Made by a program: the position numbers and the translations under genes. From an uncultured delta proteobacterium (GTDB lineage: Bacteria > Desulfobacterota > Binatia > DP-6), in the NCBI GenBank assembly GCA_963713495.1, contig CAVQLX010000015.1:72738-136737 (forward strand): a stretch of DNA of 64,000 nt, read 5' to 3'. Under the pieces are notes generated by a model. It saw only the letters and a list, made by a program, of their open reading frames with translations, was not told the DNA's origin and ran no database searches. Of the stretch, positions 29,171 to 61,936 are shown one piece after another; position 1 is the stretch's first letter, and each line of letters begins with the position of its first letter.

Positions 29171-29175
29171 GCAGC

Positions 29176-35319: not shown

Positions 35320-36327
35320 TGTCCGCCGGCGGCGAGACGCGCCGCCGGATCCTGAGCCTGCTGTCACTCGCGGCCGGACTCTCGTTGCTCGGCTGGCTCC
35401 TGCACCACACCGGCTTCGAACCCGTGTGGCAGCGCCTGCAAGTGCTCGGCTGGTGGGCTCCGCTGGTCTTCCTGCCGTATCTCGTGGTCGCGATCGCCGA
35501 CGCCCGTGGCTGGCGTCTCGCCCTGCCGTCCAGCCACGCGCGGGCGCATCCCGCTTCCGGGCCTGATGCTCACCCGCATGGCCGGCGAGGCGGTGAACAG
35601 CCTCACCCCGGCGGCAGCGCTGGGCGAGCCGGTCAAGGCGTACCTGCTGCGGCCCTGGCGCGTGACGGGATCCGAGGCCTTCGCCTCGGTGGTCATCTCG
35701 AAGACCGCGCTCATCGCCTCGCAGAGCCTCTTCACCGCGCTCGGCATCGCCGCGCTGATGGCGCGGATCGGCCGGCCGCGGCTCGCGCTCGGCTGGCTGG
35801 TGGTCCTCGTGGTCGGCTGCGTGGTCTTCACCATCGCGCTCGTCTGGGTGCAGCATCGAAACCCGGGCGCCACGCTGTGGCGACTCCTGCGGCGCGTGGC
35901 ACCCCGATCCCGGCTGGTCGATCGGCTCGAGCTCGGCAGCGCCGCGTTCGACCACCGGCTGCGCGAGTTCTACAGCGGAGAGCCGCGGACGTTCGTGCGC
36001 GCATCCACCTGGCACTTCACGGGGTGGCTCCTCGGCGTCGCCGAGGTGTTCGTCATGGTGGCCCTGATGGGCCGCTCGGTGTCCTGGCTCGACGCCTTCG
36101 TCATCGAGACGCTGGCGCAGCCCATCCGCGCGGCGTCCATCGTCGTCCCCGCAGGCATCGGGACCCAGGAGCTCGGCGGCGTGTGGCTGTGCACCTTCCT
36201 CGGCATGGCCGAGGCCGACGCCGTCACCCTGTGGATCTTGAAGCGCGCGCGCGAGGTGCTCTTCGACGGCGTGGGACTCGCCTATCTCGCACAGCACGGC
36301 GGCCGGCGCGCGGTCAGGGCGGAATGA
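35319..36327 (+). pseudogene. Flippase-like membrane protein (lysylphosphatidylglycerol-synthase TM region / UPF0104 family), apparent frameshift near 35535
   Basis: GTG overlaps the upstream stop (taGTGt). N-terminal TM region ...LLGWLLHHTGFEPVWQRL...ADARGWRLALP is in frame 0. ...LTRMAGEAVNSLTPAAALGEPVKAYLL... through the end is in frame 1. Confidence 0.6.
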
Positions 36328-37325
36328 CGATCGAGCGGCGGCAGCTCGGGCGGAGCGGCCTCGAGGTGACGCGCCTCGGACTCGGCCTCGCCGCCATCGG
36401 CCGCCCCGGCTACATCACGCTCGGCCGGGCACGCGATCTCCCGGGGCCGCGCAGCCCGGACGCCATGTGGGCACGCTGTGCCGAGGTGCTCGACGCGGGG
36501 CGCGCTGCCGGTCTCCGCTACCTGGACGCTGCGCGGAGCTACGGGCGGGCCGAGGAGTTCCTCGGACGCTGGCTGGTGGAGCGCGGCGTGGCGCGCGACG
36601 AGGTGACGGTCGGCAGCAAGTGGGGCTACCGCTACACGGCGGGCTGGACGGTGGATGCGCCGGTGCACGAGCAGAAGGAGCACTCGGTGGAACGATTCCG
36701 GGGACAGCTCGCGGAGACGCGCGCGCTGCTCGGCGATCGGGTGGACCTGTACCAGATCCACAGCGCGACGGTGGAGTCGGGGGCGCTCGGCGACGCCGCG
36801 CTGCTCGTCGCGCTCGTCGAGGCGCGGCGGCGTGCCGCGTTCCGTGCCGTCGGGGTCACGCTGAGCGGTCCGGAGTCGGCGCGCGCACTCGAGCTGGCGC
36901 TCGCGGCGCGCGTCGACGGCGAGCGTGTCTTCGACGTCGTCCAGGCGACCTTCAACGTCCTCGAGCCGTCGCTGGGTCCGCGGCTCGCGACGGCACACGA
37001 CGAGGGACTGGGCGTGATCGTGAAGGAGGTGCACGCCAACGGCCGGCTCGCCGACACGAACGACCGACCCGACGACCGCGTGCTGCTCGCCGGGCTGCAC
37101 GCGGCCGCGCCCGGAGTGCCGGTCGACCGGCTCGCCGTCGCCTTCGTCCTGGCGCATCCATTCGTCGACGTCGCGCTCTCGGGCGCGGCGACGGTCGCGC
37201 AGCTCGCGTCGCACGCCGCGGCAGCCGGGACGCCCGCGCCGGATGGCGTGCGCGAGCGGCTGGCCGCGCTCGCCGAGCCTCCCGAGCGCTACTGGCGTAC
37301 CCGCGGCGCGCTGCCCTGGAGCTGA
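36324..37325 (+). CDS. Aldo/keto reductase
   Basis: ATGA overlap with the upstream stop. LGRSGLEVTRLGLG...SKWGY...IVKEVHANGRL AKR motifs. Confidence 0.85.
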   Translation: MTIERRQLGRSGLEVTRLGLGLAAIGRPGYITLGRARDLPGPRSPDAMWARCAEVLDAGRAAGLRYLDAARSYGRAEEFLGRWLVERGVARDEVTVGSKWGYRYTAGWTVDAPVHEQKEHSVERFRGQLAETRALLGDRVDLYQIHSATVESGALGDAALLVALVEARRRAAFRAVGVTLSGPESARALELALAARVDGERVFDVVQATFNVLEPSLGPRLATAHDEGLGVIVKEVHANGRLADTNDRPDDRVLLAGLHAAAPGVPVDRLAVAFVLAHPFVDVALSGAATVAQLASHAAAAGTPAPDGVRERLAALAEPPERYWRTRGALPWS

Positions 37326-37987
37326 GCCGCGCGCAGCACGCGCGCGAGGAGCACCAGGGTCACGATCCAGAACACGTGCGCGCCGACCGCGGCCGCCGGC
37401 ACGAGCCACCCGAGGCGGCCCGCGAGCGCGAACGCGACCGGGAAGACGTACCAGTCACGCGTCGTCAGCGGTCCGAGCACCCCGTCGAGCACCCGGTTCT
37501 CCCAGCGCGCCACGCGGCGGCGGCGCGATTCCGTGACCTCGCTCCACGTGATCGCTGCGAAGGCGCCGGCCACGCCGAGGCCGAGCGCCCCGAGGACGGG
37601 CCATCCCGGCACGGGCCCCGACCGCACCAGCCGGCGCACGATGCCGGCGAGCAGCGCGACGGCCACCAGCGTGTCGCCGGCGACGTCGAGCACGTGACCG
37701 AGCCGGGACTCGGCGTGCCGCAGACGCGCGAGCTCGCCGTCGCAGCAATCGAGGATGCCCGACGCGACGAGACACGCGACGCCCGCGAGCACACCCGCCG
37801 CGCCGCCGCTCCCCACCAGCCACCCGCCAGCGACGCCGATCGCCGCGCTCGCGAGCGTGACCGCGTTGGGCGAGATCGGCGTGGGCAGGAGCGCTCGCGT
37901 GAGCGGACGCGCGAGCGGGCGGTAGAGCAGCCGGTCGATGTAGCCGTCGCGCGGGTTGCCCGGGACCGGTTCCGCGCCGCTGGTCAT
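37289..37987 (-). CDS. CDP-alcohol phosphatidyltransferase family membrane protein
   Basis: Signature DCCDGELARLRHAESRLGHVLDVAGD (D-x2-DG-x2-AR...G-x3-D-x3-D) and about 6 TM helices. The ATG overlaps the upstream stop (ATGA). Confidence 0.8.
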   Translation of the reverse strand: MTSGAEPVPGNPRDGYIDRLLYRPLARPLTRALLPTPISPNAVTLASAAIGVAGGWLVGSGGAAGVLAGVACLVASGILDCCDGELARLRHAESRLGHVLDVAGDTLVAVALLAGIVRRLVRSGPVPGWPVLGALGLGVAGAFAAITWSEVTESRRRRVARWENRVLDGVLGPLTTRDWYVFPVAFALAGRLGWLVPAAAVGAHVFWIVTLVLLARVLRAAQLQGSAPRVRQ

Positions 37988-38721
37988 GCGTCGCGGAGCG
38001 CCTCGATGCGCGGCAGCACGTCCCGCTCCGCGCGGACGACGTCGTCCGGAAAGTCGATCTCGATCCACGGCAGGCCGTCGACCCGTTCGAATCCCACCTC
38101 CACCCGTGCCAGCAGCGCGGGGTACACCTCCTCGTGCTCGATGCCGGTGTCGCCGGCCTGCACGCGCGCCTCGAGGAGCTCGCGCAGGAGCGACGCCGCC
38201 GAAGCGGAGAGCTTCAGGAATCCGATCGACTCGCCCATCAGCTCGTACCCGGGCGCGCCGCCGCGCACGATGTCGCGCACCCGGCCGTCGCGCACCAGCA
38301 GCATCTGCTCCTCCCCGGTGTTCTCCTGCGCGGCGTCGAGGAGGAAGCAGTCGGCGTGCGGCGAGCGGACGAGGCGGTCGAGCATCACCTGCGCACAGAG
38401 GACGTCCGCGTCCATGACCAGCACCGCCCGGTCGAGCGCGTCCCGCGCCGTCCACAGCGAGAGGATCGCACCCTCGCGGAAGCGCGTGTTGGTCACGCAG
38501 CGCACGTCGATGCCGCGCACCCCCGCCGCCAGCGCGGCGCGCACGAGATCGTCCCCGAAGCCGGTGACCACCACGGCCTCGCGCACGCCGGCGGCCGCGA
38601 GGCCATCCAGCAGCCGGAGCAGCAGGCTGCGCCCGGCGATCTCGATCAGACACTTCGGCGTGCCGCCCGACGTGCCGAGGAGACGCTTGCCGACGCCGGC
38701 GGCGAGGATGATCGCGGTCAC
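37984..38721 (-). CDS. MobA-like / LicC-type sugar- or headgroup-phosphate nucleotidyltransferase (cytidylyltransferase candidate)
   Basis: VTAIILAAGVGKRL...TPKCLIEIAGRSLL N-terminal NTP-transferase motif. The GTG overlaps the stop of the transaminase (GTGA). Confidence 0.75.
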   Translation of the reverse strand: MTAIILAAGVGKRLLGTSGGTPKCLIEIAGRSLLLRLLDGLAAAGVREAVVVTGFGDDLVRAALAAGVRGIDVRCVTNTRFREGAILSLWTARDALDRAVLVMDADVLCAQVMLDRLVRSPHADCFLLDAAQENTGEEQMLLVRDGRVRDIVRGGAPGYELMGESIGFLKLSASAASLLRELLEARVQAGDTGIEHEEVYPALLARVEVGFERVDGLPWIEIDFPDDVVRAERDVLPRIEALRDA

Positions 38722-39779
38722 GCGGCCGGCGCCTCCAGCGCCTCTCCCAGCGCCGCGAGGAAGCGCGTGAAGTCGCCGCGCGAGAGCGCGCCCATGTTCG
38801 CGACCCGGAACGCCTCCCTGGCGAACGCGCCCTGGCCTTCGTAGATGACGAAGCCGCGCGCCTTCAGGGCATCGTGCAGCGCGGCGTAGGTGCGCCCGGC
38901 GGGGAAGCGAAGCGACGTGATGGTGTTCGAGAGCAGCGCGGAGGGCAGCACGCACTCGAGACCGAGACGCGCGAAGCCCACGCGCAGGAGCGTCGCGGCC
39001 GACGCGTACCGCGCGATGCGTGCGGCGACCGTCTCCTCGAGCAGCTCCGCGAGCGCCTCGTCGAGCGCGTACGCCACCTGCACCGCCGGCGTGAACGGCG
39101 TCGCGTGCGTCACGTAGGTCGCGAGCGAGAGATAGATCGAGCGCCGCGGATACGTGACCAGCCGCGCCATCACCTCGTCGCGCACCAGCACGAACCCGAG
39201 GCCGGGAAACGCCTGGATGCACTTGCCGCTCGTGCCGACGACCAGGTCGCACGCCCCCAGGTCGAGCGCGTCGCCGGCGAGACCGCTCACGGCATCGACC
39301 AGGACGAGCTTGCCGAGCGCGCGCGCACGCTGCGCGATGACGGCGACGGGGTTGAGCAGGCCCGTCGTGGTCTCGTGCTGCACGACGGCGACCGCCTCGA
39401 CGTCCGGCGCGCGCAACGCGTCCTCGACGGCGTCGAGGTCGGGCGCCGACGTCCAGGCCGATCCCACCACGGTGTGCGGGACGCGGGACGCCTCGGCCAT
39501 GGCGGCGATGCGCTCGCCGTAGACTCCGTTCGAGACCACGACCAGCCGGCCGCGCGGCGAGCACACGCTCGTCACCGCCGCCTCGACCGCCGCGGTGCCG
39601 GAGCCGGTGAGCAGCACGGCGGTGAATCCGCCGCGCGGGGCGAACGCCTCGAGCAATCGCGCGCGGACGCGCGCCAGCAGCTCGGCGCACTCGGGCTCGC
39701 GATGACAGATGTCGCCGCGCGCGAGGGCCGCGGTGACCCGGGGGGAGACGTTCACGGGCCCCGGGTTCAGCAGGATCAT
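38718..39779 (-). CDS. Class V (AGXT/PhnW-type) aminotransferase; candidate 2-aminoethylphosphonate--pyruvate transaminase
   Basis: MILLNPGPVNVS N-terminus, fold-type I class V region ...LLTGSGTAAVEAAV... and PLP-lysine region VVGTSGKCIQAFPGLGFV. Function inferred from context with ppm/ppd. Confidence 0.7.
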   Translation of the reverse strand: MILLNPGPVNVSPRVTAALARGDICHREPECAELLARVRARLLEAFAPRGGFTAVLLTGSGTAAVEAAVTSVCSPRGRLVVVSNGVYGERIAAMAEASRVPHTVVGSAWTSAPDLDAVEDALRAPDVEAVAVVQHETTTGLLNPVAVIAQRARALGKLVLVDAVSGLAGDALDLGACDLVVGTSGKCIQAFPGLGFVLVRDEVMARLVTYPRRSIYLSLATYVTHATPFTPAVQVAYALDEALAELLEETVAARIARYASAATLLRVGFARLGLECVLPSALLSNTITSLRFPAGRTYAALHDALKARGFVIYEGQGAFAREAFRVANMGALSRGDFTRFLAALGEALEAPAA

Positions 39780-41299: not shown

Positions 41300-41388
41300 G
41301 GCGCGGGAAGACTTACCTCCATAATGGCTCCACTGGAAAGAGCGAAATGGACCTTCTCGTGGTACCAATCGTGTGCGATGAGGGGCGC

Positions 41389-42048: not shown

Positions 42049-42086
42049 CAGAGCGCGCGCGGAGCGCTCGGCGTCGTCGCCCTCGC

Positions 42087-43983: not shown

Positions 43984-44002
43984 GAGCCGATGCGCCCGTC
44001 GC

Positions 44003-44569
44003 TCAGGCCCCGAGGACGCGACGCAGCCGCGCGGTCATCTCCGGCGGCGTCCAGGGTATCCGCGGGCCCGGAGATCCCGCCGGACCGAGCGCGATGCGCA
44101 CCAGGAGGAACGCCGGCCCGTCACCTTCGAGAAATCCGGGGAGCACCGCGTCGAGCTCACTCGCCGACTCCACGCGAGCCGTCCAGCGATAGCCGGCGGC
44201 GCGCGCCAGCTCCTCGAGGGCGACGCGATCCGAGATGGTCGGCTGGCCGCCGGTGGACGCGTGAGCCGAGTTGTCGAAGCAGACGTGCAGCAGGTTCGAG
44301 GGACTCGCGGTCGCGATCGTGGCGAGGGCGCCCAGGTTCATCAGCACGTTGCCGTCGCCGTCGAACACGATGACGCGTCGATCGGGACGTGCCAGCGCGA
44401 CCCCGAGGCCGATCGACGCGGCCAGTCCCATCGAGCCGATCATGTAGAAGCAGGCGTCGGTGTCGCGCGCGCCGAACGCCGCGCGCGACAGGAACCCGTT
44501 GGCATGCACGCGCACCTCGTCGCCGAGGTGCGGAACGATCCGCTCCAGCGCGTCGCGCAGCGTCATCAT
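44003..44569 (-). CDS. Phosphonopyruvate (sulfopyruvate-type) decarboxylase beta subunit, TPP-binding C-domain
   Basis: TPP motif IVFDGDGNVLMNLGALATIA and IGSMGLAASIGLGVA. The start ATG overlaps the alpha-subunit stop (GTGATGATG). Confidence 0.8.
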   Translation of the reverse strand: MMTLRDALERIVPHLGDEVRVHANGFLSRAAFGARDTDACFYMIGSMGLAASIGLGVALARPDRRVIVFDGDGNVLMNLGALATIATASPSNLLHVCFDNSAHASTGGQPTISDRVALEELARAAGYRWTARVESASELDAVLPGFLEGDGPAFLLVRIALGPAGSPGPRIPWTPPEMTARLRRVLGA

Positions 44570-45090
44570 CACCCATGCTCCGTGAACAGGCCGGGCTTCA
44601 CGAGGAGCGCGACGGGCTTGCGCGTCGCGGAGAGCGTGGCAGCGGCCCAGTCGACGTCGGCGAGCACGGTCGTCGCATCCGGATCGCGATGCGGGATGGC
44701 GAACAGATCGAGCAACGGGGCCAGGACGCCGCCCATCACGAGGTGCTCGGGCGCGTCCTTCCCCTCGTATCCGCGCCACGTGATCACGAGGAGGACGGGC
44801 AGCTCGTACAGGATGTGCAGCGAGCCGAGCGCGTTCAGCGACACGCCGAGACCGGAGTTCTGCATGATCACGACCGGCCGGCGGCCGCCCAGGTAGGCAC
44901 CCGCGGCGACGCCGAGCGCCGCGTCCTCGCGTGTCTCGCCCAGGTAGCGGCCGCGACGCTCGAGCTCGGCGATCACCGGGCCGACGAGCGAGCAGGGGAC
45001 ACCGGCGAAGAAGTCGAAGCCGGCGGCGAGGAGTCGATCGACGAAGCTGGCAGCGGAGACCGGAGCGGTCAGCGCGCCACCTCCGCCCAC
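44569..45090 (-). CDS. Phosphonopyruvate (sulfopyruvate-type) decarboxylase alpha subunit, TPP-enzyme N-domain
   Basis: FVDRLLAAGFDFFAGVPCSLVGPV...VVIMQNSGLGVSLNAL. In-frame GTG at 45090, overlapping the end of ppm by 22 nt. Confidence 0.75.
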   Translation of the reverse strand: MGGGGALTAPVSAASFVDRLLAAGFDFFAGVPCSLVGPVIAELERRGRYLGETREDAALGVAAGAYLGGRRPVVIMQNSGLGVSLNALGSLHILYELPVLLVITWRGYEGKDAPEHLVMGGVLAPLLDLFAIPHRDPDATTVLADVDWAAATLSATRKPVALLVKPGLFTEHG

Positions 45091-46721
45091 GCCCGCCGGT
45101 AGTCGTCGAAGCTGTCGATCTCCATCCAGCCCTTGTGGATGTCGACCGCGACCACCGGGTGCCCGCGATCGATCAACGCCTGGAAGATGTGCGTGATGCT
45201 GCTGCGCTCCAGCCCCTCGGCGCGTTGCGCCGTCAGCTCGGCGTGGACGTCGAGCAACGTCTTCGCACCCGCGGCCGACAGCATGGCGAGCCCGATGAAC
45301 TCGCCGTGCGCCTCCTCGGGGCGCACCTCGGGCCCGATGCGCAGCACGCGGCTTCCGCCCTCGGGCGCGACGAAGCGACGGCCGTTGGGCGGCGTCTCCG
45401 TGACGACGAGATCGAGCGGGCCCGGGGGCGGCGGCATGCCGGCCTGGAGCGTGTCGACGAAGGCGCGATCGACGACGACCGCGACGTCCGCCGTCGAGCG
45501 CACGAGCTTCTCCAGGACCGGCGGCTCGAAGATGATGTCGCCGTAGAGGATCACGCACGGCCCGCTCAGCTCCGCGCTCGCGCACAGCAGCGACTCCAGC
45601 TCGCCCGTCTCGGCGAACCGGTCGTTGTCGACGTAGCGCGCGCCGTCGGCCGCCACCTGCTCCTTCTTGTATCCGCGTACCACCACGACGTCGCGGATGC
45701 CGACGCGCCCGAGCGACTCGATCTGACGGTCGAGGATGGTGCGGCCCTTCACCTCGAGCATCGTCTTCGGACGATCCTGGGTGAGCGGCAGGAGCTGCGG
45801 CTCGAATCCCGCCGCGAGGATGACGGCCTTCGGGGCCTCCGCGCCGGCGAAGAGGAAGCGCTGCTCGTTCGCCTTGAGCTCCGGGACGCCGACCAGGCGA
45901 TAGACCTCTTCCAGCGGCACGATCCGATCGTCCACGCTGGCCGCGCGGCCGGTCTCGCGCAGCCGCAGCAGGGTGTCGCGCATGGCGACGATGGCGGCGC
46001 GCAGCGGCTGGTTGGCGAAGATCGACATGCGGAAACCCGCCGCGGCGAGCTCCTCGAGACCGACCTCCGCGTAGGTGGTGGGCACCGCCACGAGAGGAAC
46101 GTGCGGCGACCCGTCGACGCGCCACCGATCGGCGAACCGGCGCAGCTCGCCGAAGTCGCGCTCCTTCGAGTGCACCAGGACGGCGTCGGCGCCCGCGTCG
46201 GCATAGGCCTTCGCGCGGTGCAGGGCGTCGTCGATGCCGAGGCCGGCGATCAGCGCCTCGGTGCGCGCGATGACGGCGAAGTCGGAGCTGCGCCGGGCCG
46301 AGCACGCCGCCTCGATCTTGCGCGCATGCTCCTCGGCCGCGACCAGATCGCGGCGCACCCCGGCGTAGAAGCTGCACCGCTTGGGAAACTCGTTGTCCTC
46401 GATGCAGATGCCCGCGGCACCGGCACGCTCGAACTCGCTCGCCGTGCGCATCACGTTGATGGCGTTGCCGTAGCCGTTGTCGCAGTCGGCGACGACCGGG
46501 ATGGTCACGGCATCGCAGATGCGACGGACCGCATCGAGCGTCTCGGTGAGGGTGAGGATGTTGGCGTCCGGCACGGCCTGGACCGCCGAGATGCCGAACC
46601 CGCTCGCCCAGACGGCGTCGAATCCGGCTTCCTCTGCGAGCTTGGCCGAGAGCGCATCGTGGGCACCTGCCGCCAGCACCACCCCCGGCCGCTCGAGCAA
46701 CCGCCTCAGACCCCCTGGCAT
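45069..46721 (-). CDS. ppm: Phosphoenolpyruvate phosphomutase fused to a C-terminal PntC/LicC-like nucleotidyltransferase domain
   Basis: Ppm/ICL-fold N-domain with the signature EDNEFPKRCSF (EDKxxxxxNS) and ...ADCDNGYGNA.... C-terminal approximately 250 aa KAVILAAGFEPQLLPLTQDRPKTMLEVKGRTIL is an NTP-transferase fold. 550 aa. Confidence 0.85.
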   Translation of the reverse strand: MPGGLRRLLERPGVVLAAGAHDALSAKLAEEAGFDAVWASGFGISAVQAVPDANILTLTETLDAVRRICDAVTIPVVADCDNGYGNAINVMRTASEFERAGAAGICIEDNEFPKRCSFYAGVRRDLVAAEEHARKIEAACSARRSSDFAVIARTEALIAGLGIDDALHRAKAYADAGADAVLVHSKERDFGELRRFADRWRVDGSPHVPLVAVPTTYAEVGLEELAAAGFRMSIFANQPLRAAIVAMRDTLLRLRETGRAASVDDRIVPLEEVYRLVGVPELKANEQRFLFAGAEAPKAVILAAGFEPQLLPLTQDRPKTMLEVKGRTILDRQIESLGRVGIRDVVVVRGYKKEQVAADGARYVDNDRFAETGELESLLCASAELSGPCVILYGDIIFEPPVLEKLVRSTADVAVVVDRAFVDTLQAGMPPPPGPLDLVVTETPPNGRRFVAPEGGSRVLRIGPEVRPEEAHGEFIGLAMLSAAGAKTLLDVHAELTAQRAEGLERSSITHIFQALIDRGHPVVAVDIHKGWMEIDSFDDYRRAWAEVAR

Positions 46722-46823
46722 CGGAGAATCCGCTTATAGCCCCCGGGCACGCAGGTGCAAGCCAGCGTTTGAGCAGGCGAGACGACAGGCCATCCGGGTA
46801 ACACCTCCGTAACGGTTGCGCGT

Positions 46824-46867
46824 CGCTGACCGGTCGGGTAGACGGCTGACTCACCGCTCGGTCAGCG
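46824..46867. promoter_or_regulatory. Stem-loop (9-bp perfect stem CGCTGACCG / CGGTCAGCG, 26-nt loop) in the divergent ppm/hpnJ intergenic region
   Basis: Read directly. Lies 60 nt upstream of the hpnJ ATG and about 100 nt upstream of the ppm start. Function unknown (leader structure or protein-binding dyad). Confidence 0.3.
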
Positions 46868-46926
46868 GTGGTGGGCCGTATGCCGCGTGGGATCGCGTCG
46901 CCGGCGAGGGGGGGAAAGGGAACCGG

Positions 46927-48384
46927 ATGCGTACGCTCTTCTTGAATCCGCCGTCGTACGACGACTTCGACGGAGGCGCGGGCTCACGCTACCAGGCGAA
47001 GCGCGAGGTCTGGTCGTTCTGGTACCCCACCTGGCTCGCCTACCCGGCGGGCATGCTCCCGGGGGCGCGGCTGCTCGACGCGCCGCCGGAGGGTCTGAGC
47101 GTCGAGGACGTCGTGCGCGTGGCGCGCGACTTCGATCACGTCGTCATCCACACCAGCACACCGTCGTTCCGGGCGGACGTCCGCACCGCCGAGGCGCTGA
47201 AGGCGTCACGACCCGACACCGTCATCGGATTCGTCGGCGGACACGTCAGCGCGCGCCCCGAGGAGTCGCTCCGCTTCAGCGGCGCGCTCGACTACGTCGC
47301 GCGCAAGGAGTTCGACCTGGCCGTCGTGGCCGTCGCCAATGGCCGCCCGCTCGCCGACGTGCAGGGAATCAGCTTCCTCAGCGAGGGACGCTACGTCCAC
47401 ACCGACGAGCCCGCTCCGCTCGACAGCGAGCAGCTCGACGCGCTGCCGTTCGCCACCGACATCTACGCGCGCGACCTCGACTACAAGAAGTACAACAGCC
47501 CCTACTGCCAGTATCCGTACGTCTCGCTCTACACCGGCCGCGGCTGCCCGGCGCGCTGCACGTTCTGCCTCTGGCCGCAGGTGACGACCGGACACAGCTA
47601 CCGCACCCGCAGCGTCGCCAACGTGCTCGCGGAGTGCGCGCACGTGAAGCGGCTCTTCCCGGAGATGAAGGAGCTGTTCTTCGACGACGACACCTTCACC
47701 GCCGACCCGAAGCGCGCCGTCGAGATCGCGAAGGGGCTCGGCAAGCTCGGCATCACCTGGTCCACCAACTCGCGCGCCAACGTGGACCGCGAGACGCTGC
47801 AGGCGCTCGCCGAGAACGGGCTGCGTCTCTTCGTGGTGGGCTACGAATCGGGGAACGAGCAGATCCTGCGCAACATCCGCAAGGGAGTCGGCGTCGACCG
47901 GGCCCGCCGCTTCACTCGCGACTGCCACGACCTCGGCATCCTGATCCACGGCACGTTCATCCTGGGGTTGCCGGGCGAGACGCGCGACACGATCGTGGAG
48001 ACGATGCGGTTCGCGGACGAGATGCGGCCGGAGACGCTGCAGGTGTCGCTGGCGTCACCGTATCCGGGGACGGCGATGTACGACTGGGTGCGGGAGCGCG
48101 ACTACCTGACCGTCGACAGCCTGGTCGACGACACCGGCTACCAGAAGTGCACCGTGAGCTATCCCGAGGTGTCGGCGGACGAGATGTTCCGCGCCGTCGA
48201 GACGTTCTATCGCCACTACTACTTCAGCCGTCGCTACATCTGGAAGTCGATCAAGAAGATGGCGCGCGACCGCGAGGAGCGGAAGCGGCTCCTGTCGGAG
48301 GGGCGGCAGTTCCTCGGCGCGATGTGGAAGCGCCGCCAGATCGCCGCCGCGGCGGGACGCTCGGACCTCTCCACGGGGAGCTGA
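46927..48384 (+). CDS. hpnJ: Hopanoid biosynthesis-associated B12-binding radical SAM protein HpnJ
   Basis: N-terminus MRTLFLNPPSYDDFDGGAGSRYQAKREVWSFWYPTWLAYPAG is highly characteristic of HpnJ. Radical SAM CPARCTFC. RBS GGGGAAAGGG. Confidence 0.85.
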   Translation: MRTLFLNPPSYDDFDGGAGSRYQAKREVWSFWYPTWLAYPAGMLPGARLLDAPPEGLSVEDVVRVARDFDHVVIHTSTPSFRADVRTAEALKASRPDTVIGFVGGHVSARPEESLRFSGALDYVARKEFDLAVVAVANGRPLADVQGISFLSEGRYVHTDEPAPLDSEQLDALPFATDIYARDLDYKKYNSPYCQYPYVSLYTGRGCPARCTFCLWPQVTTGHSYRTRSVANVLAECAHVKRLFPEMKELFFDDDTFTADPKRAVEIAKGLGKLGITWSTNSRANVDRETLQALAENGLRLFVVGYESGNEQILRNIRKGVGVDRARRFTRDCHDLGILIHGTFILGLPGETRDTIVETMRFADEMRPETLQVSLASPYPGTAMYDWVRERDYLTVDSLVDDTGYQKCTVSYPEVSADEMFRAVETFYRHYYFSRRYIWKSIKKMARDREERKRLLSEGRQFLGAMWKRRQIAAAAGRSDLSTGS

Positions 48385-48385
48385 C

Positions 48386-49570
48386 GTGATCGCCCTGGTT
48401 CCGCTCGTGCTCGCGTGCTCCGCGATCGCCAGCTTCTACCAGCTCCTGCAGATCGTGGCGGCGCGGCGCTTCCTCCTGCGCTCGCGCCGTCTCCCGACCG
48501 GATACACCCCGCCCATCACCGTGCTGAAGCCGCTCAAGGGTCCCGGGGTCGAGCTGGCGACGAACCTCGAGACCTTCTGCCGTCAGGACTATCCCGAGTA
48601 CCAGATCGTGTTCGGCGTCGAGGACGCCGGTGACCCGGCGGTGGAGATCGTCCGTTCGCTCATGCGCCGGTTTCCCGACCGTGACATCACCCTCTCGGTC
48701 GGGGACGAGGAGGGAGCCAACCGCAAGGTCGCGAGCCTGGTGCACATGATGCGGCACGCCCGGCACGACGTGCTGGTGATCAGCGACGCCGACATCCGCG
48801 TGCGACCCGACTACCTGCGTACGCTGGCTGCTCCGCTGTCTGACCCGACGGTGGGGCTCACCACCTGCCTGTACCGCGGTCGCTCCATCATCGGGCTCCC
48901 GTCGCTGATCGAGTCGCTGTTCATCAACACCGACTTCCTGCCGATGGTGCTGATGGCGCAGTGGGTACAGCGATTTCGCTACGCCTACGGCGCCTCGACG
49001 GCGTTCCGGCGCGAGGCGCTCGCCGGCATCGGCGGATTCGACGCCCTGCGCGATCACCTCGCGGACGACTACGTGCTCGGCAACCGCATCGCCGACGCGG
49101 GATGGCGGCTGCTGCTGCTGCCCTACGTGGTCGAGACGGTCCTCGACTCGCGCACCCTCGGCGACGTCTGGCGACACCAGCTGCGCTGGGCGCGCACCTA
49201 TCGGGCATGCCAGCCCTTCGGCTGGTTCGTCTCGCTCATCGTCCACACCATGCTGTGGGGCGTGCTGGCGGTGCTCGCCACGAGCGGGTCGACCGTCGGC
49301 TGGATCGCGCTCCTCACGGCCATCGTCGCGCGCGTCGGGGCGCTTCGCGTGATCCTCGGCATGCTCGGCGATACGGCAACCGTGCGCGAGCTGTGGCTCG
49401 TGCCGCTGAAGGACCTCGCCTACTCGGCGGTCTGGATGACCTCGTGGCTCGGACGCGACGTCGTCTGGAGCGGGCAGCGCCTGCGCGTGCTGCCCGACGG
49501 TCGCATGCTCCCGCTGGACGCCGTCTCCGAACCGGCCCTCCCGTCGAAGCTGGCGGCGCCGTCGCGCTGA
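48386..49570 (+). CDS. hpnI: Hopanoid biosynthesis-associated GT2 glycosyltransferase HpnI
   Basis: TVLKPLKG...QDYPEYQIVFGVED...DAD motifs of HpnI-type GT2. GTG start 2 nt after the hpnJ stop. Confidence 0.8.
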   Translation: MIALVPLVLACSAIASFYQLLQIVAARRFLLRSRRLPTGYTPPITVLKPLKGPGVELATNLETFCRQDYPEYQIVFGVEDAGDPAVEIVRSLMRRFPDRDITLSVGDEEGANRKVASLVHMMRHARHDVLVISDADIRVRPDYLRTLAAPLSDPTVGLTTCLYRGRSIIGLPSLIESLFINTDFLPMVLMAQWVQRFRYAYGASTAFRREALAGIGGFDALRDHLADDYVLGNRIADAGWRLLLLPYVVETVLDSRTLGDVWRHQLRWARTYRACQPFGWFVSLIVHTMLWGVLAVLATSGSTVGWIALLTAIVARVGALRVILGMLGDTATVRELWLVPLKDLAYSAVWMTSWLGRDVVWSGQRLRVLPDGRMLPLDAVSEPALPSKLAAPSR

Positions 49571-49572
49571 GG

Positions 49573-51408
49573 GGACGACGTACGGCCACGGCGGAGCGCG
49601 ACCTCCGGGCACTCCCCGGAACCCGCCGCGCCGGGCTGCCGTGGCGCTCCGCGCTCCGCACATGGGCGCTCGCCGTCGGCCTCGCCGCCGGCGCCGGCGC
49701 GACGCTGGCGATCATCGCGATCGCCCGCAAGCAGGTCCTGCCGATCGGACGTGCCGAGCAGCTCGACCTGGTCGCGCGCTGGGCGATGCTCGCGGCGCCG
49801 ACGGGCGCGGCGCTCGGGGTGCTCGGCGCGCTGCTCGTCCTCTGTGCGCGACACAAGGGCATCCGGCGCGGCCTGGTGGGGCTCGTGCTGCTCGCCGGCG
49901 GAACGCTGACCGTGGCCGCCGGGCTCCGCTCGCACAACTCGCCGTGGCACATGCTCGGCGCGCCGGCTCCGTACGAGCCGCTGGTGTCGCGCCACGCGCG
50001 CGAGGGCGCGCCGAACCTGGTGCTCATCACCGTCGACACGCTGCGGGCAGACCACCTCGAGCCATACGGGTACCAGCGTCCGACCGCGCCCGCGCTGAGC
50101 GCGCTCGCGCGCGACGGCGCGGTGTTCGACCTCGCGATCTCCCAGGCTCCGGAGACCCTGCACTCCATCGCGGCCCTGATGACCGGTCTCTACCCGCACG
50201 TCGTGGATCGCACGTTCGAGCTGCGCGAGCGGCGCGGACCGTTCCTCGATTCGGCGTATCACGCCCTCGCGGAGCGGCTGGCGGCGGGCGGCTACCACAC
50301 CGCCGGCTTCGTCTCGAATCTCTTCCTGCGCGCGCGCAACGGATTCGGCCAGGGATTCGAGCACTACGACGACACGTCGGGAATGTACTTCTGGGGTGCC
50401 AGCGGACGCAGCCGCCGGGCGAAGGATGTCGTGGACCCGGCCATCGCGTGGCTGGCGCACGCCGAGCCGCCGTTCTTTCTCTGGGTCCACGTGATGGACC
50501 CGCACCACCCGTACGAGCCGGCGGCGCCCGAGCCCTGGGAAGGAGCCGGGTCCCCGACGTTCATCGCCTTCGACCAGGAATACGGCGAGCTCGACATCTC
50601 CGGCTACACGCGCCGCCTCGAGGAACTCGGGACCGGCCGCCGGCCGTTCGCGCCGGGCGAGCTGGCGTATCTGGTCGGCCGCTACGACGCCGAGATCCGC
50701 CAGAGCGATCGCGCGATCGAACGCCTCGTCGACGGCCTGCACGCGCGCGGCTTCGACGCCAGCAACACCACCATCGTCGTCACCGCCGATCATGGCGAGG
50801 AGTTCGCCGATCACGGAGGGATGACGCACGGACAGACGCTCTTCGACGAGCTGATCCACGTGCCGCTGATCGCCCAGGGCGCCGGCGTACCGCGCGGCTC
50901 GCACGTGGAAGATCAGGTCCGGTTGATCGACGTCGCGCCGACACTGCTCGACCTGGCCGGGCTGCTCGACGGCCCCTCCGGACCCGGCCTGCACGGCCGC
51001 AGCCTGCTGCCGGCGTTGCGCGGCGCGCCGATGCCGGCGCTGCCGGCGCTGTCGTTCTGCGAGCGGGATTACGCGGCCTATCGCACGCCCGACCGCAAGC
51101 TCGTGGTCTCCTTCGAACCGTACCCGACGGCGCCGTCGCCCTGGCCGTTCTGGCGGAGCCTGACCTCGATGGCGAGCATCGCCTCCGGTCCACGTCACCG
51201 GCTCCGGATCGGCTACTGGCGACTCGGGAAGGATCCCGGCGAGCACGAGGATCTCCTCACCACCGATGCGGCCGGCGTCCGTCAAGCCTACGACGCGCTC
51301 CTGCTCGAGCGTCTCGCGCACCCGCCGCTGGCCGTCGCGTCATCGGCGGACACGGAGGTCGAGGCGTCGACGCGCGAGCGCCTCGAGGCGCTCGGCTACG
51401 TGCGCTGA
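49573..51408 (+). CDS. Sulfatase-family (alkaline-phosphatase superfamily) membrane transferase, LtaS/EptA/OpgB-like; start codon uncertain
   Basis: Three N-terminal TM helices, then ...NLVLITVDTLRADHLEPYGY... metal-binding core lacking the C/S-x-P-x-R formylglycine motif, so a transferase rather than a true sulfatase. No canonical start codon in frame between the hpnI stop and TM1. Confidence 0.6.
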   Translation, partial: GRRTATAERDLRALPGTRRAGLPWRSALRTWALAVGLAAGAGATLAIIAIARKQVLPIGRAEQLDLVARWAMLAAPTGAALGVLGALLVLCARHKGIRRGLVGLVLLAGGTLTVAAGLRSHNSPWHMLGAPAPYEPLVSRHAREGAPNLVLITVDTLRADHLEPYGYQRPTAPALSALARDGAVFDLAISQAPETLHSIAALMTGLYPHVVDRTFELRERRGPFLDSAYHALAERLAAGGYHTAGFVSNLFLRARNGFGQGFEHYDDTSGMYFWGASGRSRRAKDVVDPAIAWLAHAEPPFFLWVHVMDPHHPYEPAAPEPWEGAGSPTFIAFDQEYGELDISGYTRRLEELGTGRRPFAPGELAYLVGRYDAEIRQSDRAIERLVDGLHARGFDASNTTIVVTADHGEEFADHGGMTHGQTLFDELIHVPLIAQGAGVPRGSHVEDQVRLIDVAPTLLDLAGLLDGPSGPGLHGRSLLPALRGAPMPALPALSFCERDYAAYRTPDRKLVVSFEPYPTAPSPWPFWRSLTSMASIASGPRHRLRIGYWRLGKDPGEHEDLLTTDAAGVRQAYDALLLERLAHPPLAVASSADTEVEASTRERLEALGYVR

Positions 51409-52307
51409 TCGCCGGCGCGCGCGCGGCCGCCGTCTCCGGCGGCCAGCTCGGCGTAGCTCACCAGCCGCACGCCCAACGCGTGCACGCATGCGCGCACGCG
51501 CGGGCTCACCAGGGCGGCGAGCTCGCCCGCGTGGTCGTAGCCGGGCTGGAGGCCCTCCGTTGCCGGCGGCTGGAGGACCGCGGGATGACAGTAGAGCTCG
51601 CTCACGCCGGGCGGCAGCGCGGGGATCAGCCGGAGCAGATATGCCTCGTCGACGTGCCCGGTCTGGTGCATGCCGTAGACGCGGTCGGTCGTGACGATCC
51701 CCGCCGCGCGTAGCCGCGGGGCCGCCCAGGCCGCGAGCGCACGGAACACCAGGCCCTCGCCGGTCTTGCGCAGCATGTGGCGACGATCGTGACGCAGCGC
51801 CGATCCGAGGCTCTCGCGCGTCAGGCGCATGGCGCGGATGCCGTAGCGCGGAGCAAGCTCGAGCAGGATGGCCAGCACCATCGGATGGAGGTGCATGTTC
51901 AGATGGCCGTCGACGTGTGCCAGCTCGAGCCCCGTCGCGACGAAGGCGTCGAGCTGCGCCGCGATCTCGCGCCGCAGCTGTGCACGCCCGGTGCGTCCCA
52001 GCGCGACGGCGGCGTAGTGCATGCCGGCTCGTACGGCGTCGTCGCCGAAGCGGCCACGGGCGTCGACCAGCCGCGGGATCGCGGAGGCCGGAGCCGCGGG
52101 TCGAGCCTGCGCCAGCACCAGATGCAGCCCGACGGCCAGCGTCGGGTTCGCACGCGCCACCGCCACCGCGTCCGCCGCCGCGTCCCCGGTGACCATCAGG
52201 CTCGTGCTGGTGAGGATGCCGTCGCGGTGGGCGCGCGCGATGGCGACGTTGATCGCCTCGGCGGCGCCGAAGTCGTCGCCGCTGACGACGAGCTGGCGCG
52301 CGCTCAC
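51396..52307 (-). CDS. hpnK: Hopanoid biosynthesis-associated YdjC/ChbG-like deacetylase HpnK
   Basis: GTG start. LVVSGDDFGAAEAINVAIARAHRDGILTSTSLMV and HVDGHLNMH motifs of the YdjC family. Convergent with the sulfatase-family gene, overlapping by 13 nt. Confidence 0.75.
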   Translation of the reverse strand: MSARQLVVSGDDFGAAEAINVAIARAHRDGILTSTSLMVTGDAAADAVAVARANPTLAVGLHLVLAQARPAAPASAIPRLVDARGRFGDDAVRAGMHYAAVALGRTGRAQLRREIAAQLDAFVATGLELAHVDGHLNMHLHPMVLAILLELAPRYGIRAMRLTRESLGSALRHDRRHMLRKTGEGLVFRALAAWAAPRLRAAGIVTTDRVYGMHQTGHVDEAYLLRLIPALPPGVSELYCHPAVLQPPATEGLQPGYDHAGELAALVSPRVRACVHALGVRLVSYAELAAGDGGRARAGDQRT

Positions 52308-54199
52308 GCGAGGCCGTCGATCCGCGGCAGGGGTCCGCGCTGGCGGATGTCCTGCAGCGTGACCGTGAGCTCGTCGAGTCGCTCCGCGAGCGCGTCCGGA
52401 CCGTCGAGGGGCAGGAGCAGGCCCTCGTGCTCGCGATCGCGCAGCCACGCGGCCATGATCGTGCTCGCGGCGACGTCGCCGCGCTCGAGCGGCGCATCCT
52501 GGTAGCGCGCGAAGCGTTCGCGGACCACCTGCACCGCTGCCGCGAGGTCGGCGACGGCGCGGATCTGCAGCTCGACCGCGAGCCGGCCGCCGAGCGCGGC
52601 GTAGAGCTGCGCCCCGTCGCGATCCGCCGTGGGAAGGAGCGCGACGAAGTTCTGGCGCGCGAGGATCCATTGCAGCCGTTGCTGGCGCCGGCGGAGATCG
52701 TCCAGCACGAGCAGATCCCGCTGCGCGCGCGCGGCGGCCTCGAAGCGCAGCTCCTCCGCGGCGCCGTCACGACGTGCCACCAGCCGCGTGACCGCGGCGT
52801 CGTCGCGCCCGTCGACGAAGGCGAGGAAAGCGTCCACCCGCTGGCGATACGCCGGCTCGTCGATGCGCGCGGCGCACGGCGCGGGACAGGTGCCCACCTG
52901 ACCGAGCAGGCACGGGCTCGTCTCGACCGACGGCGCCAGCCGCCCGGAGCAGGTGCGAATGCCGAACGCCCTCGCCAGCACCGCCTGCGCACGCTCGGCG
53001 CTCTCGCTGCTCGCGAAGGGTCCGAGGTAGGTGGCGCGGTCGGTCCCGAGCCGGCGCGTGACGGACAGGCGCGGATACGGATCGCGCAGCGTGATGCGGA
53101 GGAACGCGACCCGTGGAAGCTGCCGTCCCTGGCGATTGTAGGGCGGCTTGAGCTCGCGGATCTGCCGCATCTCGAGCAGCGCCGCTGCCAGCTCGGATCC
53201 CGTCTCGGTCACGCGCACGTCGTACACCTGGCGGATCAGCTCGAGCGCCCGCCGCGAGTGTCCGCGCGAGTTGCTGAACCAGTTCCCGAGCCGCGCGCGC
53301 AGGCGCCGTGCCTTGCCGACGTAGAGCAGGCGGCCGTCCTGCCCGAGCAGATGGTACACCCCGGGCGACGGGGGAATCTCGGCGAGACGCTCGCGCGACA
53401 CGTGCACGACGAACGGCTCGCCGTCGCTCGCCGCATGCTGCAGCGCCAGCAGCTCGCTCACGCGCGTGACACCGCGCTCGGCGGCCCGCTCGAGGAACAC
53501 GCACAGGATCTCCGCCGCGATGCGGGCATCGCCCAGGCCGCGGTGGCGGTCGTAGCAGGCGAGCCCGAGCGCCGCGGCGACGGCGTCGAGCGAGCGACGC
53601 CGCTGCTCCGGCAGCAACCGGCGCGCGAGACGGATGGTGCAGAGGGCAGGACGCGCGAGCGCCCGCCCGGTGATCGCGCGATGCGCCGCATCCAGATGCG
53701 TGACGTCGAAGCTGGCATTGTGAGCGACCAGCACCGCGTCGCCTGCGAACTCGAGGAACCGCGGCAGCGCCTCGGCGATCGGCGGCGCGGAGGCCACCAT
53801 CGCGTCGGTGATCCCCGTGAGCGCCGCGACGAACGGCTGGATCGGGCGGCCGGGATTCACCAGCGTGCTGAACGTGTCGAGCAGGCGCCCGTCGACCACG
53901 CGCACGGCGCCGATCTCGATGATGCCACCGCTCGCGGGGCCACCACCCGTCGTCTCGAGGTCGACGACCACGAAGGCCTGTCCCGCGATCGGCCGGCAGA
54001 GGAGATCGTGCGCACGCGCATGCCAGCGACGAGCGTCGACGTCGAAGCTGAAGCGCGAGTCGCCGCCGAGCAGCACGTCGAGGAAGCGGGTGCCGAACTC
54101 CGGATCGCGTCCCTGGCCCGTGAAGACCAGCGAGAGCAGGTCCGCTGGCTCCGCTCCGTCGGGCCGATCGAGCAAGTATTCGAGGAGACGCTGCCGCAC
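52304..54199 (-). CDS. DnaQ-like 3-prime-5-prime exonuclease fused to a GIY-YIG (UvrC/Cho-like) nuclease domain
   Basis: FVVVDLETTG...HNASFD (DEDDh exonuclease) followed by GVYHLLGQDGRLLYVGKARRLRARL (GIY-YIG) and a UvrC-like middle region. 631 aa. Confidence 0.8.
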   Translation of the reverse strand: MRQRLLEYLLDRPDGAEPADLLSLVFTGQGRDPEFGTRFLDVLLGGDSRFSFDVDARRWHARAHDLLCRPIAGQAFVVVDLETTGGGPASGGIIEIGAVRVVDGRLLDTFSTLVNPGRPIQPFVAALTGITDAMVASAPPIAEALPRFLEFAGDAVLVAHNASFDVTHLDAAHRAITGRALARPALCTIRLARRLLPEQRRRSLDAVAAALGLACYDRHRGLGDARIAAEILCVFLERAAERGVTRVSELLALQHAASDGEPFVVHVSRERLAEIPPSPGVYHLLGQDGRLLYVGKARRLRARLGNWFSNSRGHSRRALELIRQVYDVRVTETGSELAAALLEMRQIRELKPPYNRQGRQLPRVAFLRITLRDPYPRLSVTRRLGTDRATYLGPFASSESAERAQAVLARAFGIRTCSGRLAPSVETSPCLLGQVGTCPAPCAARIDEPAYRQRVDAFLAFVDGRDDAAVTRLVARRDGAAEELRFEAAARAQRDLLVLDDLRRRQQRLQWILARQNFVALLPTADRDGAQLYAALGGRLAVELQIRAVADLAAAVQVVRERFARYQDAPLERGDVAASTIMAAWLRDREHEGLLLPLDGPDALAERLDELTVTLQDIRQRGPLPRIDGLA

Positions 54200-61884: not shown

Positions 61885-61936
61885 CCGCCCGGTCGCCGGG
61901 TCGCCTCTACCGCGCGGACGTGCGACGCTCCGGCGC

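Follow-up and report, generated by a model that had tools for sequence, protein, structure and literature searches.

In 2015 Schmerk et al. reportedly defined the hpnI-hpnK-hpnJ pathway genetically in Burkholderia cenocepacia. The three genes are required for the conversion of bacteriohopanetetrol (BHT) to BHT cyclitol ether (PMC5462960), and a survey covering 15,541 species detected the HpnG, HpnI and HpnJ domains exclusively in genomes with both the squalene-hopene cyclase SHC and HpnH (bioRxiv 10.1101/2025.07.29.667474). A second described system is the 'Burkholderiales_CDP-OH' or group 1 phosphonolipid family of gene clusters. This is the most abundant neighbourhood in RefSeq of ppm, the gene for phosphoenolpyruvate (PEP) mutase; its core is predicted to yield a phosphonolipid and its product has never been characterised (PMC8942020). 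Here we describe a 64-kb stretch of DNA, referred to below as the window, with all best matches in Candidatus Binatia, in which a hopanoid-tailoring gene set and a phosphonate operon lie back to back. An initial annotation of the window had described this divergent arrangement, and we confirm it. At the comparative-genomic level phosphonate and hopanoid genes are truly connected, a link that is essentially undescribed; its recurrence in three phyla suggests an undescribed phosphonate-bearing hopanoid.

The GC content of the window is about 71%, at which most long open reading frames (ORFs) are spurious, so genes were called from third-position or codon-position GC together with a codon model seeded with genes confirmed by tblastn. 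The hopanoid side of the locus, with the junction between the two gene sets, is as follows.

46722..46926, no strand: divergent intergenic region between ppm and hpnJ, 205 bp between the two ATGs
46927..48384, plus strand: hpnJ, B12-binding radical SAM enzyme of the BHT cyclitol ether pathway (TIGR03471, PF02310, PF04055)
48386..49570, plus strand: hpnI, GT2/GT21 glycosyltransferase making BHT-N-acetylglucosamine (TIGR03472, PF13506)
51396..52307, minus strand: hpnK, YdjC-type deacetylase converting BHT-N-acetylglucosamine to BHT-glucosamine (TIGR03473, PF04794; GTG start)

The junction and the three gene assignments are those of the initial annotation, and HpnJ, HpnI and HpnK all score above the curated NCBIfam equivalog cut-offs. 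HpnJ reaches 694.6 bits against TIGR03471 (cut-off 577.6) and covers positions 1-471 of the 472 in the profile, HpnI reaches 383.3 bits against TIGR03472 (cut-off 310) and 164.5 bits against PF13506, and HpnK reaches 317.6 bits against TIGR03473 (cut-off 232.6) and 239 bits against PF04794 (YdjC). The radical SAM cysteines of HpnJ (C207, C211 and C214 in GRGCPARCTFC, a CxxxCxxC motif) are invariant in the 12 sequences of alignment A1. Judged from these matches the locus carries a bona fide set for tailoring hopanoid head groups, in which HpnI would add N-acetylglucosamine to BHT, HpnK would deacetylate the product and HpnJ is predicted to contract the ring, giving the cyclitol ether.

As in Paraburkholderia graminis, where the order is hpnJ-hpnI-hpnL, hpnJ and hpnI are adjacent and translationally close, with hpnI starting 1 nt past the hpnJ stop codon. 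The window differs from the known pathway in several respects: its hpnK runs on the opposite strand, coupled to a gene for an exonuclease; hpnI and hpnK are separated by an inserted sulfatase-family gene; the set stands head-to-head with the phosphonate operon; and shc, hpnH and the other core genes lie outside the window. Three close relatives (L009, L010 and L021) keep ppm divergent from hpnJ-hpnI and have no hpnK in their flank; if their genomes also lack hpnK, the pathway there may end at BHT-N-acetylglucosamine.

The phosphonate side of the locus centres on 2-aminoethylphosphonate (AEP) and comprises seven genes.

45069..46721, minus strand: Ppm-NT, PEP mutase fused to a PntC-type cytidylyltransferase (TIGR02320; PF13714, PEP_mutase; PF12804, NTP_transf_3)
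44569..45072, minus strand: phosphonopyruvate decarboxylase (Ppd), alpha-like subunit of a split enzyme (TIGR03297, 120.8 bits, profile positions 1-156; PF02776)
44003..44572, minus strand: phosphonopyruvate decarboxylase, beta-like subunit (TIGR03297, 172.4 bits, profile positions 169-359; PF02775)
38718..39779, minus strand: AEP aminotransferase (best match TIGR03301, PhnW-AepZ, 310 bits with a cut-off of 360.8; PF00266)
37984..38721, minus strand: second, stand-alone PntC-like cytidylyltransferase (PF12804)
37289..37987, minus strand: CDP-alcohol phosphotransferase, the conserved candidate AEP transferase (PF01066; signature DCCDGELARLRHAESRLGHVLDVAGD)
35566..36327, plus strand: HpnL-like flippase-type membrane protein (LPG_synthase_TM, PF03706; best match TIGR03476)

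All six component types of the Burkholderiales_CDP-OH family (Li and Horsman 2022, PMC8942020; Rice et al. 2019, PMC6697681) are therefore present between 35566 and 46721, namely the Ppm-PF12804 fusion, Ppd, the AEP transaminase, a second PntC, the CDP-alcohol (CDP-OH) transferase and the LPG_synthase_TM protein (HpnL). By tblastn the module matches the clusters of B. cenocepacia and Roseomonas gene by gene, and the stand-alone PntC-like protein is 37% identical over its full length to the product of a phosphocholine-cytidylyltransferase-family gene in the Roseomonas aepX cluster. Unlike the described family, the window has its Ppd split in two genes, a Ppm loop that reads EDNEFPKRCS, and an inserted ClC channel, MocR regulator and pyridoxamine-oxidase-like gene; unlike the B. 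cenocepacia module, it abuts hopanoid genes. The alpha-ketoglutarate/Fe(II) oxygenase of the seven-gene core has no Pfam or NCBIfam match among the genes scanned at 34300-46721, where a 186-amino-acid ORF (42087-42647) belongs to no family.

Is this adjacency conserved? A scan with an HpnJ alignment, with one genome per species, gave 80 Binatia loci that were mapped by tblastn and gene families. In the clade of the window (clade A, HpnJ identity 76-94%) every locus keeps ppm divergent from hpnJ, and the same junction is found on 14 further metagenome contigs. In L012, L019, L020 and L022 the six phosphonate genes, ppm-NT through the CDP-OH transferase gene, are packed into a single block that diverges from hpnJ and is free of inserted genes; in L017 this holds for the first five of them, the contig ending before the CDP-OH gene. 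In other clades the CDP-OH transferase and HpnL-like pair adjoins hpnJ or hpnK in at least four gene orders, and phosphonate genes reappear near hpnJ in L037, L046, L051 and L073. When the HpnJ proteins are grouped at 80% identity into seven clusters, a CDP-OH transferase is found within 10 kb in six of the seven, phosphonate genes in four and the sulfatase-family gene in one. Furthermore, four loci belonging to three HpnJ clusters (L011, L012, L037 and L046) encode a 322-amino-acid protein with squalene-cyclase/prenyltransferase alpha-alpha-toroid repeats, within the phosphonate operon or next to it.

A small Rieske ferredoxin gene adjoins the squalene-cyclase-repeat gene in L011, L012 and L037 (for example L012:7172-8140 and L012:6868-7158 for the pair), and neither gene is present in the window.

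The converse search started from the phosphonate side. Scanning metagenomes with a Ppm-NT alignment added 80 loci in 21 Ppm-NT clusters (70% identity), 14 of which have at least 6 kb of flanking sequence. Hopanoid-specific genes lie within 10 kb in six of these 14 clusters, where roughly 1% would be expected for random loci, a rough estimate of ours from about 20 kb of hopanoid genes per 4-6 Mb genome. Five arrangements were seen. The first is that of the window, with hpnI-hpnJ divergent from ppm. In the second (L163, L165, L175) hpnD-hpnA-hpnG-hpnH is divergent from shc...ppm-ppd-pntC-CDP-OH...hpnN. The third (L136, L142) reads ppm...pntC-hpnA-hpnL-CDP-OH-AEPT-ppd-hpnH, where AEPT is the AEP transaminase gene, and the fourth (L107, L121, L176) ppm...polyprenyl synthase-hpnA. 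In the fifth (L132, L150) ppm-ppdA-ppdB-AEPT-pntC-hpnK lie on one strand, with the hpnK start in L132 within about 18 nt of the pntC stop. The hopanoid genes score above NCBIfam cut-offs in L165 (Shc 801, HpnH 543, HpnA 473 and HpnD 316 bits), L142 (HpnA 469, HpnH 420), L132 (HpnK 288) and L176 (HpnA 469).

The L165 type belongs to Methylomirabilota/Rokubacteria, and L178 is a contig of the same organism. Between 5350 and 14710 it carries a co-directional run of shc, mlaE, mlaF, mlaD, mlaC (HpnM-like), ppm-NT, ppd, pntC and the CDP-OH transferase gene. Of the eight junctions in this run, five are overlaps of 1-8 nt or spacings of no more than 12 nt, and gaps of 38-41 nt make up the remaining three. 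Here Ppd is a single chain and the CDP-OH transferase has 383 amino acids; no AEP transaminase gene was found in the run from shc to the CDP-OH gene. In this type hpnD, hpnA, hpnG and hpnH lie upstream of the run, and genes of the inositol-1-phosphate-synthase family and for an HpnN-like MMPL protein lie downstream.

A third phylum is represented by the alphaproteobacterium Roseomonas marmotae, whose plasmid p1318-3 (NZ_CP061094) has the same six phosphonate-module genes as the window (PntC, aepX, aepY, an HpnL-domain protein, AEP transaminase and CDP-OH transferase) beside hopanoid genes. The module is flanked by an MMPL/VacJ/polyprenyl-synthase block and by ispH-hpnH-hpnG-shc-hpnEDC-GT-hpnA. 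In contrast to the window, the partners there are shc, hpnH, hpnG, hpnC-E and hpnA rather than hpnIJK, the Ppm motif is the canonical EDKLFPKTNS, Ppd is a single chain and the phylum is a different one. A single sentence in a genome survey of Acetobacteraceae mentions a frequent linkage of terpenoid genes with the mutase (PMC8776678).

Two proteins of the module deserve a closer look. The CDP-alcohol phosphotransferase contains the signature D(x)2DG(x)2AR(x)7-9G(x)3D(x)3D from residue 80 (DCCDGELARLRHAESRLGHVLDVAGD), as do all 28 of the 28 family members found near hpnJ. A longer family member from another Binatia locus (L025, 431 amino acids) has AF2299/DIPPS as its best match in the PDB. Longer Binatia CDP-OH transferases of this kind carry an N-terminal extension of about 200 residues, and we considered whether it could be a cytidylyltransferase domain, as in IPCT/DIPPS. 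That idea was rejected, as the extension has no similarity to PntC and no Pfam match; it aligns with the juxtamembrane region of AF2299.

The HpnL-like protein of the window has TIGR03476 (HpnL) as its best match, with a score of 137 bits that is under the cut-off of 195.65, and other Binatia copies score 170-188 bits. The phosphonate-cluster copies of Roseomonas (260 bits) and B. cenocepacia (368 bits) are above the cut-off. A more distant HpnL paralogue follows hpnJ-hpnI in Paraburkholderia, Caballeronia and Methylobacterium. Proteins of PF03706 are flippases of head-group-modified lipids, with which the flipping of an AEP-hopanoid and that of an AEP-phospholipid are both compatible. HpnL itself is known as a hopanoid-associated protein whose function 'remains unclear' (bioRxiv 10.1101/2025.07.29.667474; likewise PMC12583986).

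Taken with the linkage, these identities lead us to a proposal that we hold tentatively, at somewhat less than even confidence: the phosphonate module may esterify AEP onto a C35 hopanoid, either BHT or its glucosamine or cyclitol-ether head group, and so make phosphono-hopanoids, a new class of lipid. The tailoring set would then be functionally coupled to the divergent phosphonate module. AEP would be made by Ppm-PntC, the split Ppd and the AEP transaminase, and activated to cytidine monophosphate-AEP (CMP-AEP) by the PntC domains (cf. Rice et al., PMC6697681). The candidate transferase is the CDP-alcohol phosphotransferase at 37289-37987, not the sulfatase-family protein; it would move the aminoethylphosphonyl group to a hydroxyl of the C35 hopanoid at the cytoplasmic face of the membrane. 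We infer the acceptor, with the side chain of BHT and its glucosamine or cyclitol head group as candidates, and likewise the flipping of the product to the outer leaflet by the HpnL-like protein, after which it would be exported with the other hopanoids. The expected product is a hopanoid with an additional 107.01 Da (C2H6NO2P).

Several observations weigh against this proposal. Known CDP-alcohol transferases have substrates of the diacylglycerol, glycerol-phosphate or inositol-phosphate type. A full-text literature search found no phosphorus-containing bacteriohopanepolyol, and the word 'phosphon' is absent from two recent hopanoid papers (bioRxiv 10.1101/2025.07.29.667474 and PMC12583986). 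In the window, the hpn genes are divergent from ppm rather than in one operon with it, and tblastn found no homologue of shc, hpnH, hpnG, hpnA or hpnC-E in the 64 kb. In one clade-A locus (L016) ppm and hpnJ are parted by 1 kb and an extra gene. The B. cenocepacia module has no hopanoid gene within 15 kb, P. graminis has hpnJ-hpnI-hpnL without a CDP-OH transferase, and in Mycetohabitans about 110 kb of a shared replicon lie between aepX and hpnJ. The presence of an Arn-like module nearby (ArnT-like, DegT, GT2 and GFO proteins) raises the possibility that the region is a general envelope-lipid island.

The main alternative is that the two pathways run in parallel, with AEP placed on diacylglycerol or another non-hopanoid acceptor and the product co-made, flipped and exported alongside amino-hopanoids, within a single programme of outer-membrane remodelling and without any chemical joining. 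We regard this as a serious possibility, if on the doubtful side. Clustering would then reflect shared trafficking (Mla-like/HpnM, HpnN and HpnL-type flippases) and shared regulation rather than a covalent conjugate. The module matches the Burkholderiales_CDP-OH core, for which a phosphonolipid on diacylglycerol is the published prediction, and in Burkholderia it lies away from the hopanoid genes. PF03706 flippases act on head-group-modified phospholipids, and the weaker NCBIfam matches of the Burkholderia HpnL are a glucosaminyl-phosphatidylglycerol (GlcN-PG) flippase and MprF. The Rokubacteria module sits between the transport genes mlaEFDC and hpnN, and the Binatia neighbourhood holds several other envelope-lipid modules, with the Arn-like one next door. 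However, parallel pathways do not readily explain why hpnK is part of a co-directional run with phosphonate genes in L132 and L150, why hpnA adjoins the HpnL and CDP-OH transferase genes in L136, L142 and L176, or why a squalene-cyclase-repeat protein is encoded inside four phosphonate operons. For these features a hopanoid substrate is the easier explanation.

Two further points against a phosphono-hopanoid concern the mutase. Ppm-NT scores 275.6 bits against TIGR02320, under the cut-off of 319.55, and its gating-loop motif (46374-46403, minus strand, residues ~107-116) is EDNEFPKRCS rather than EDKX5NS. The latter is the diagnostic motif of PEP mutases and has been used as a filter in published inventories (PMC6697681, PMC8942020). 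One could argue from these two facts that 'ppm' is a diverged enzyme of the isocitrate-lyase family, that no phosphonates are made, and that the adjacency is meaningless, inherited synteny in a gene-dense envelope region. The Ppd halves resemble sulfopyruvate decarboxylase subunits as well, the two gene sets are divergently transcribed, and no Rfam element or consensus promoter was found. On the other hand, TIGR02320 is still the best family (phosphonopyruvate hydrolase reaches 238 bits), and the best PDB match is a PEP mutase (5unc, 268 bits). EDNEFPKRCS is kept in 14 of 14 Binatia orthologues and the variant is also found in Rokubacteria relatives; among the 150 nearest Ppm representatives at 50% identity, 25 have EDN..CS and 82 have EDK..NS. 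In the window Ppm, the split Ppd, the PhnW-AepZ-like transaminase and the two PntC-type domains form a block on one strand, and every EDN..CS relative with enough flank is accompanied by Ppd, AEP transaminase, PntC and a CDP-OH transferase.

The best family and structure, the shared variant and the company of genes together favour a true mutase with a variant gating loop. Meaningless adjacency also fits poorly with hopanoid genes in six of the 14 informative Ppm-NT lineages, with arrangements that differ across three phyla, and with the Roseomonas case, where the Ppm motif is canonical. We consider it very improbable, the least likely of the explanations weighed here. Censuses filtered on EDKX5NS leave out a sizeable EDN..CS clade of Ppm-PntC fusions from abundant soil phyla, and the environmental potential for phosphonate biosynthesis may be underestimated.

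The initial annotation had linked hopanoids and phosphonates through a different protein. It placed a sulfatase-family gene between hpnI and hpnK, which is borne out (PF00884, at about 49.6-51.4 kb), labelled the product as LtaS/EptA-type, and stressed it in a hypothesis that the hopanoid head group is further decorated with a phospho(no)-group.

49786..51408 (start uncertain), plus strand: sulfatase-family (alkaline-phosphatase superfamily) membrane-anchored protein (PF00884, 138.7 bits)

Under that proposal an EptA/LtaS-like transferase would act in the periplasm, placing a phospho(no)-head group on the hopanoid's amino-sugar or cyclitol. Some features of the protein are in keeping with it. 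The nucleophile position is a threonine, as in EptA and LtaS (T124 in APETLHS, 540-residue numbering), which is invariant in 46 homologues down to 33% identity, and the formylglycine motif Cys/Ser-x-Pro/Ala-x-Arg of sulfatases is absent: P-E-T-L-H-S-I aligns with P-I-C-A-A-S-R of 6hr5. The metal-ligand residues D84, D335, H336 and H240 are invariant and the two-lobed sulfatase fold is present. At the N-terminus, ahead of the catalytic domain, there are two or three membrane helices; an AlphaFold2 model (pLDDT 90) has two (H3-20 and H24-49), and a third hydrophobic stretch is present only with an upstream translation start. EptA/MCR-1, LtaS and OpgB share with it the N-terminal membrane anchor, the extracytoplasmic catalytic domain, the threonine nucleophile and the Asp/His ligands (DHGE). 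The fold relatives include phosphonate monoester hydrolases (PMH), whose substrate bond is that of an AEP ester. The gene lies between hpnI and hpnK not just in the window but also in L001, L002 and L008, and a 47%-identical homologue is found 3.8 kb from hpnE-shc-hpnH in L092, which is a hint rather than a pattern.

The LtaS/EptA label itself does not hold, either by sequence or by fold; in sequence the protein is nearer to arylsulfatases, choline sulfatases and phosphonate monoester hydrolases. In NCBIfam the protein scores 93 bits as an arylsulfatase and 19-25 bits for EptA, CptA, MCR-5 and YejM (20-25 bits for the EptA/LtaS families), and in a PDB sequence search sulfatases and PMH reach 50-62 bits compared with about 21 bits for MCR/EptA chains. 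The top 50 Foldseek matches of the model in the PDB are all S1 sulfatases or phosphonate monoester hydrolases, with no EptA or LtaS among them; the best include 2vqr, 4uph and 7stt (E 1e-24 to 1e-20, TM ~0.6-0.7). Unlike EptA/MCR-1, LtaS and OpgB, the protein has two or three helices instead of five, and a larger two-lobed catalytic domain of the S1 sulfatase/PMH type. It differs from PMH and the S1 formylglycine sulfatases, which are its best sequence and structural matches, in having T-L-H-S-I in place of the formylglycine motif and in its membrane anchor. With an invariant threonine and membrane helices it could act as a membrane-anchored phospho(no)ester transferase or hydrolase, and the product is most likely a periplasm-facing enzyme of one of these two kinds.

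The distribution of the gene argues against a core role. Among the clade-A relatives it is present only in L001, L002 and L008, so that in the one HpnJ cluster of seven that contains it, it is found in part of the members, and it occurs in none of the 80 metagenomic Ppm-NT loci, including the 14 of window type. The slot between hpnI and hpnK is empty in six of 12 clade-A loci (gaps of 31-350 nt) and elsewhere holds HupE/DUF3604/PPIase genes, APH/GDSL/MBOAT genes, a histidine kinase gene or an unknown 329-amino-acid gene. Homologues at 42-58% identity are mostly in unrelated contexts: next to DUF35/thiolase/CoA-transferase genes in L003, L091, L095 and L096, downstream of pstSCAB in L094, and in other unrelated surroundings in L006 and L093. 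We also asked if the family as a whole is tied to hopanoid or phosphonate genes and rejected this after inspecting nine homologue contexts, in which L092 is the only such case besides close relatives (P0005, 79% identical).

The start of the gene is itself unusual. The candidates are ATG 49786, GTG 49444 (inside hpnI) and a non-canonical codon near 49591; the frame has no ATG, GTG or TTG between 49444 and 49786. The GTG start of the 81%-identical L001 orthologue is GCG in the window (49591-49593) and in L008, and coding-like third-position GC and codon bias extend upstream of ATG 49786, from about 49650. Either the gene has an unusual start or it now lacks its first membrane helix. The loss of the orthologue's start codon adds to the case against a transferase central to the system, and we think it very improbable that this protein decorates the hopanoid. 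The gene is a recent lineage-specific insertion in a variable slot and probably a bystander, outside the conserved system. What stands of the original idea is the link between hopanoids and phosphonates, in that the adjacency is conserved in a Binatia clade and recurs in other phyla; the idea of the sulfatase as its agent is weak.

A possible original home of the gene is suggested by a cluster of thiolase-like, DUF35/ChsH2-like, glyoxalase and SnoaL-like genes at 59913-62323, 8.5 kb downstream of it in the window. The same families flank its homologues in L003, L091, L095 and L096, and it may have come from such a setting.

The initial annotation also held that hopanoid and phosphonolipid remodelling were at minimum co-regulated. 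When the intergenic regions of 11 relatives are aligned (45% mean identity), four sets of conserved blocks stand out: CTTATA with GCAA (on the minus strand TTGCAC-N16-TATAAG), CGTT..GCGAGAC, TTGCGC..TA and a palindrome. From their conservation we read the blocks as promoter-like, that is, as predicted back-to-back promoters. Scans for consensus sigma-70 promoters and terminators in the intergenic region and at 49.4-52.5 kb found nothing, and no Rfam match, such as a cobalamin riboswitch ahead of hpnJ, came up anywhere in the window.

46851..46864, no strand: perfect palindrome TCACCGCTCGGTCA, operator-like, upstream of hpnJ

The palindrome has the consensus T(G/T/C)ACCGNNCGGTCA in relatives, and an imperfect, weaker second copy lies at 46827-46840, 24 nt upstream of the first. 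Each of 15 clade-A loci has exactly one copy of it, 24-98 nt upstream of hpnJ, and the rest of their flanking sequence has none. It looks like a putative operator for a dimeric regulator. In L016, where ppm lies 1 kb away from hpnJ with an extra gene in between, the palindrome stays with hpnJ. The intergenic architecture is thus conserved and shared control of ppm and hpnJ is possible, but co-regulation cannot be taken as the minimum.

The MocR-type gene (39776-41299) was considered as a regulator of the locus and rejected, because it forms a divergent pair with the pyridoxamine-oxidase-like gene and the compact operons of L012, L019 and L020 contain neither of the two.

If phosphono-hopanoids exist, the most abundant family of ppm clusters in bacteria would finally have its long-sought product, and HpnL would gain a function as the flippase of a phosphono-hopanoid. 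The PEP mutases with EDN..CS would mark a large hidden reservoir of phosphono-hopanoid chemistry in soil Binatia and Rokubacteria. Composite hopanoids serve as geochemical biomarkers, and an AEP-bearing hopanoid would be a new biomarker class that standard derivatisation may miss. Three questions, the product of the group 1 phosphonolipid clusters, the function of HpnL and the existence of AEP-hopanoid biomarkers, can be tested jointly, and the linkage in Binatia, Rokubacteria and Acetobacteraceae points to culturable organisms, Roseomonas and Burkholderia, for doing so.

The remaining observations concern neighbouring genes. Between the ppd genes and the AEP aminotransferase gene the window carries a split ClC channel, the 186-amino-acid ORF, the pyridoxamine-oxidase-like gene and the MocR-type regulator. 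The last three, a MocR-type (GntR plus aminotransferase) regulator, a divergent gene resembling pyridoxamine-5'-phosphate oxidase and the conserved, family-less ORF, span 39776-42647; this insertion is also found in L009, L010, L014 and L016 and is absent from L012, L019 and L020. The ClC-type chloride channel (42644-43983, minus strand) is split into two overlapping frames, 43102-43983 and 42644-43198. The gene is intact (429 amino acids) in L001 and L008, and the frameshift in the window marks either a pseudogene or an assembly error.

On the far side of the phosphonate genes, window positions 26279-37325 hold an Arn-like aminosugar lipid-modification module, which includes the HpnL-like protein, an aldo-keto reductase and the following genes. 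The same families adjoin hpnJ in L038 and L043.

26279-27955: ArnT-like GT-C glycosyltransferase
29176-30366: Omp85-family protein
32301-34421: DegT aminotransferase and GT2, called as a single 706-amino-acid ORF
34300-35319: GFO/UDP-GlcNAc-3-dehydrogenase-like protein

At the other end of the locus hpnK converges with the sulfatase-family gene, with an overlap of 13 nt, and its GTG start (52307) overlaps the stop codon of an upstream exonuclease/GIY-YIG gene.

52304..54199, minus strand: DEDDh exonuclease/UvrC-like fusion, upstream of hpnK (PF00929; RNase_T and UvrC_M in L001)

This exonuclease gene, translationally coupled to hpnK in the window, is probably a neighbour and not part of the system. 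Its adjacency to hpnK is kept in clade A, and in the lower-GC relatives L099, L101 and L103 the same gene lies directly upstream of ppm-NT, making it a persistent neighbour without an obvious tie to lipid metabolism.

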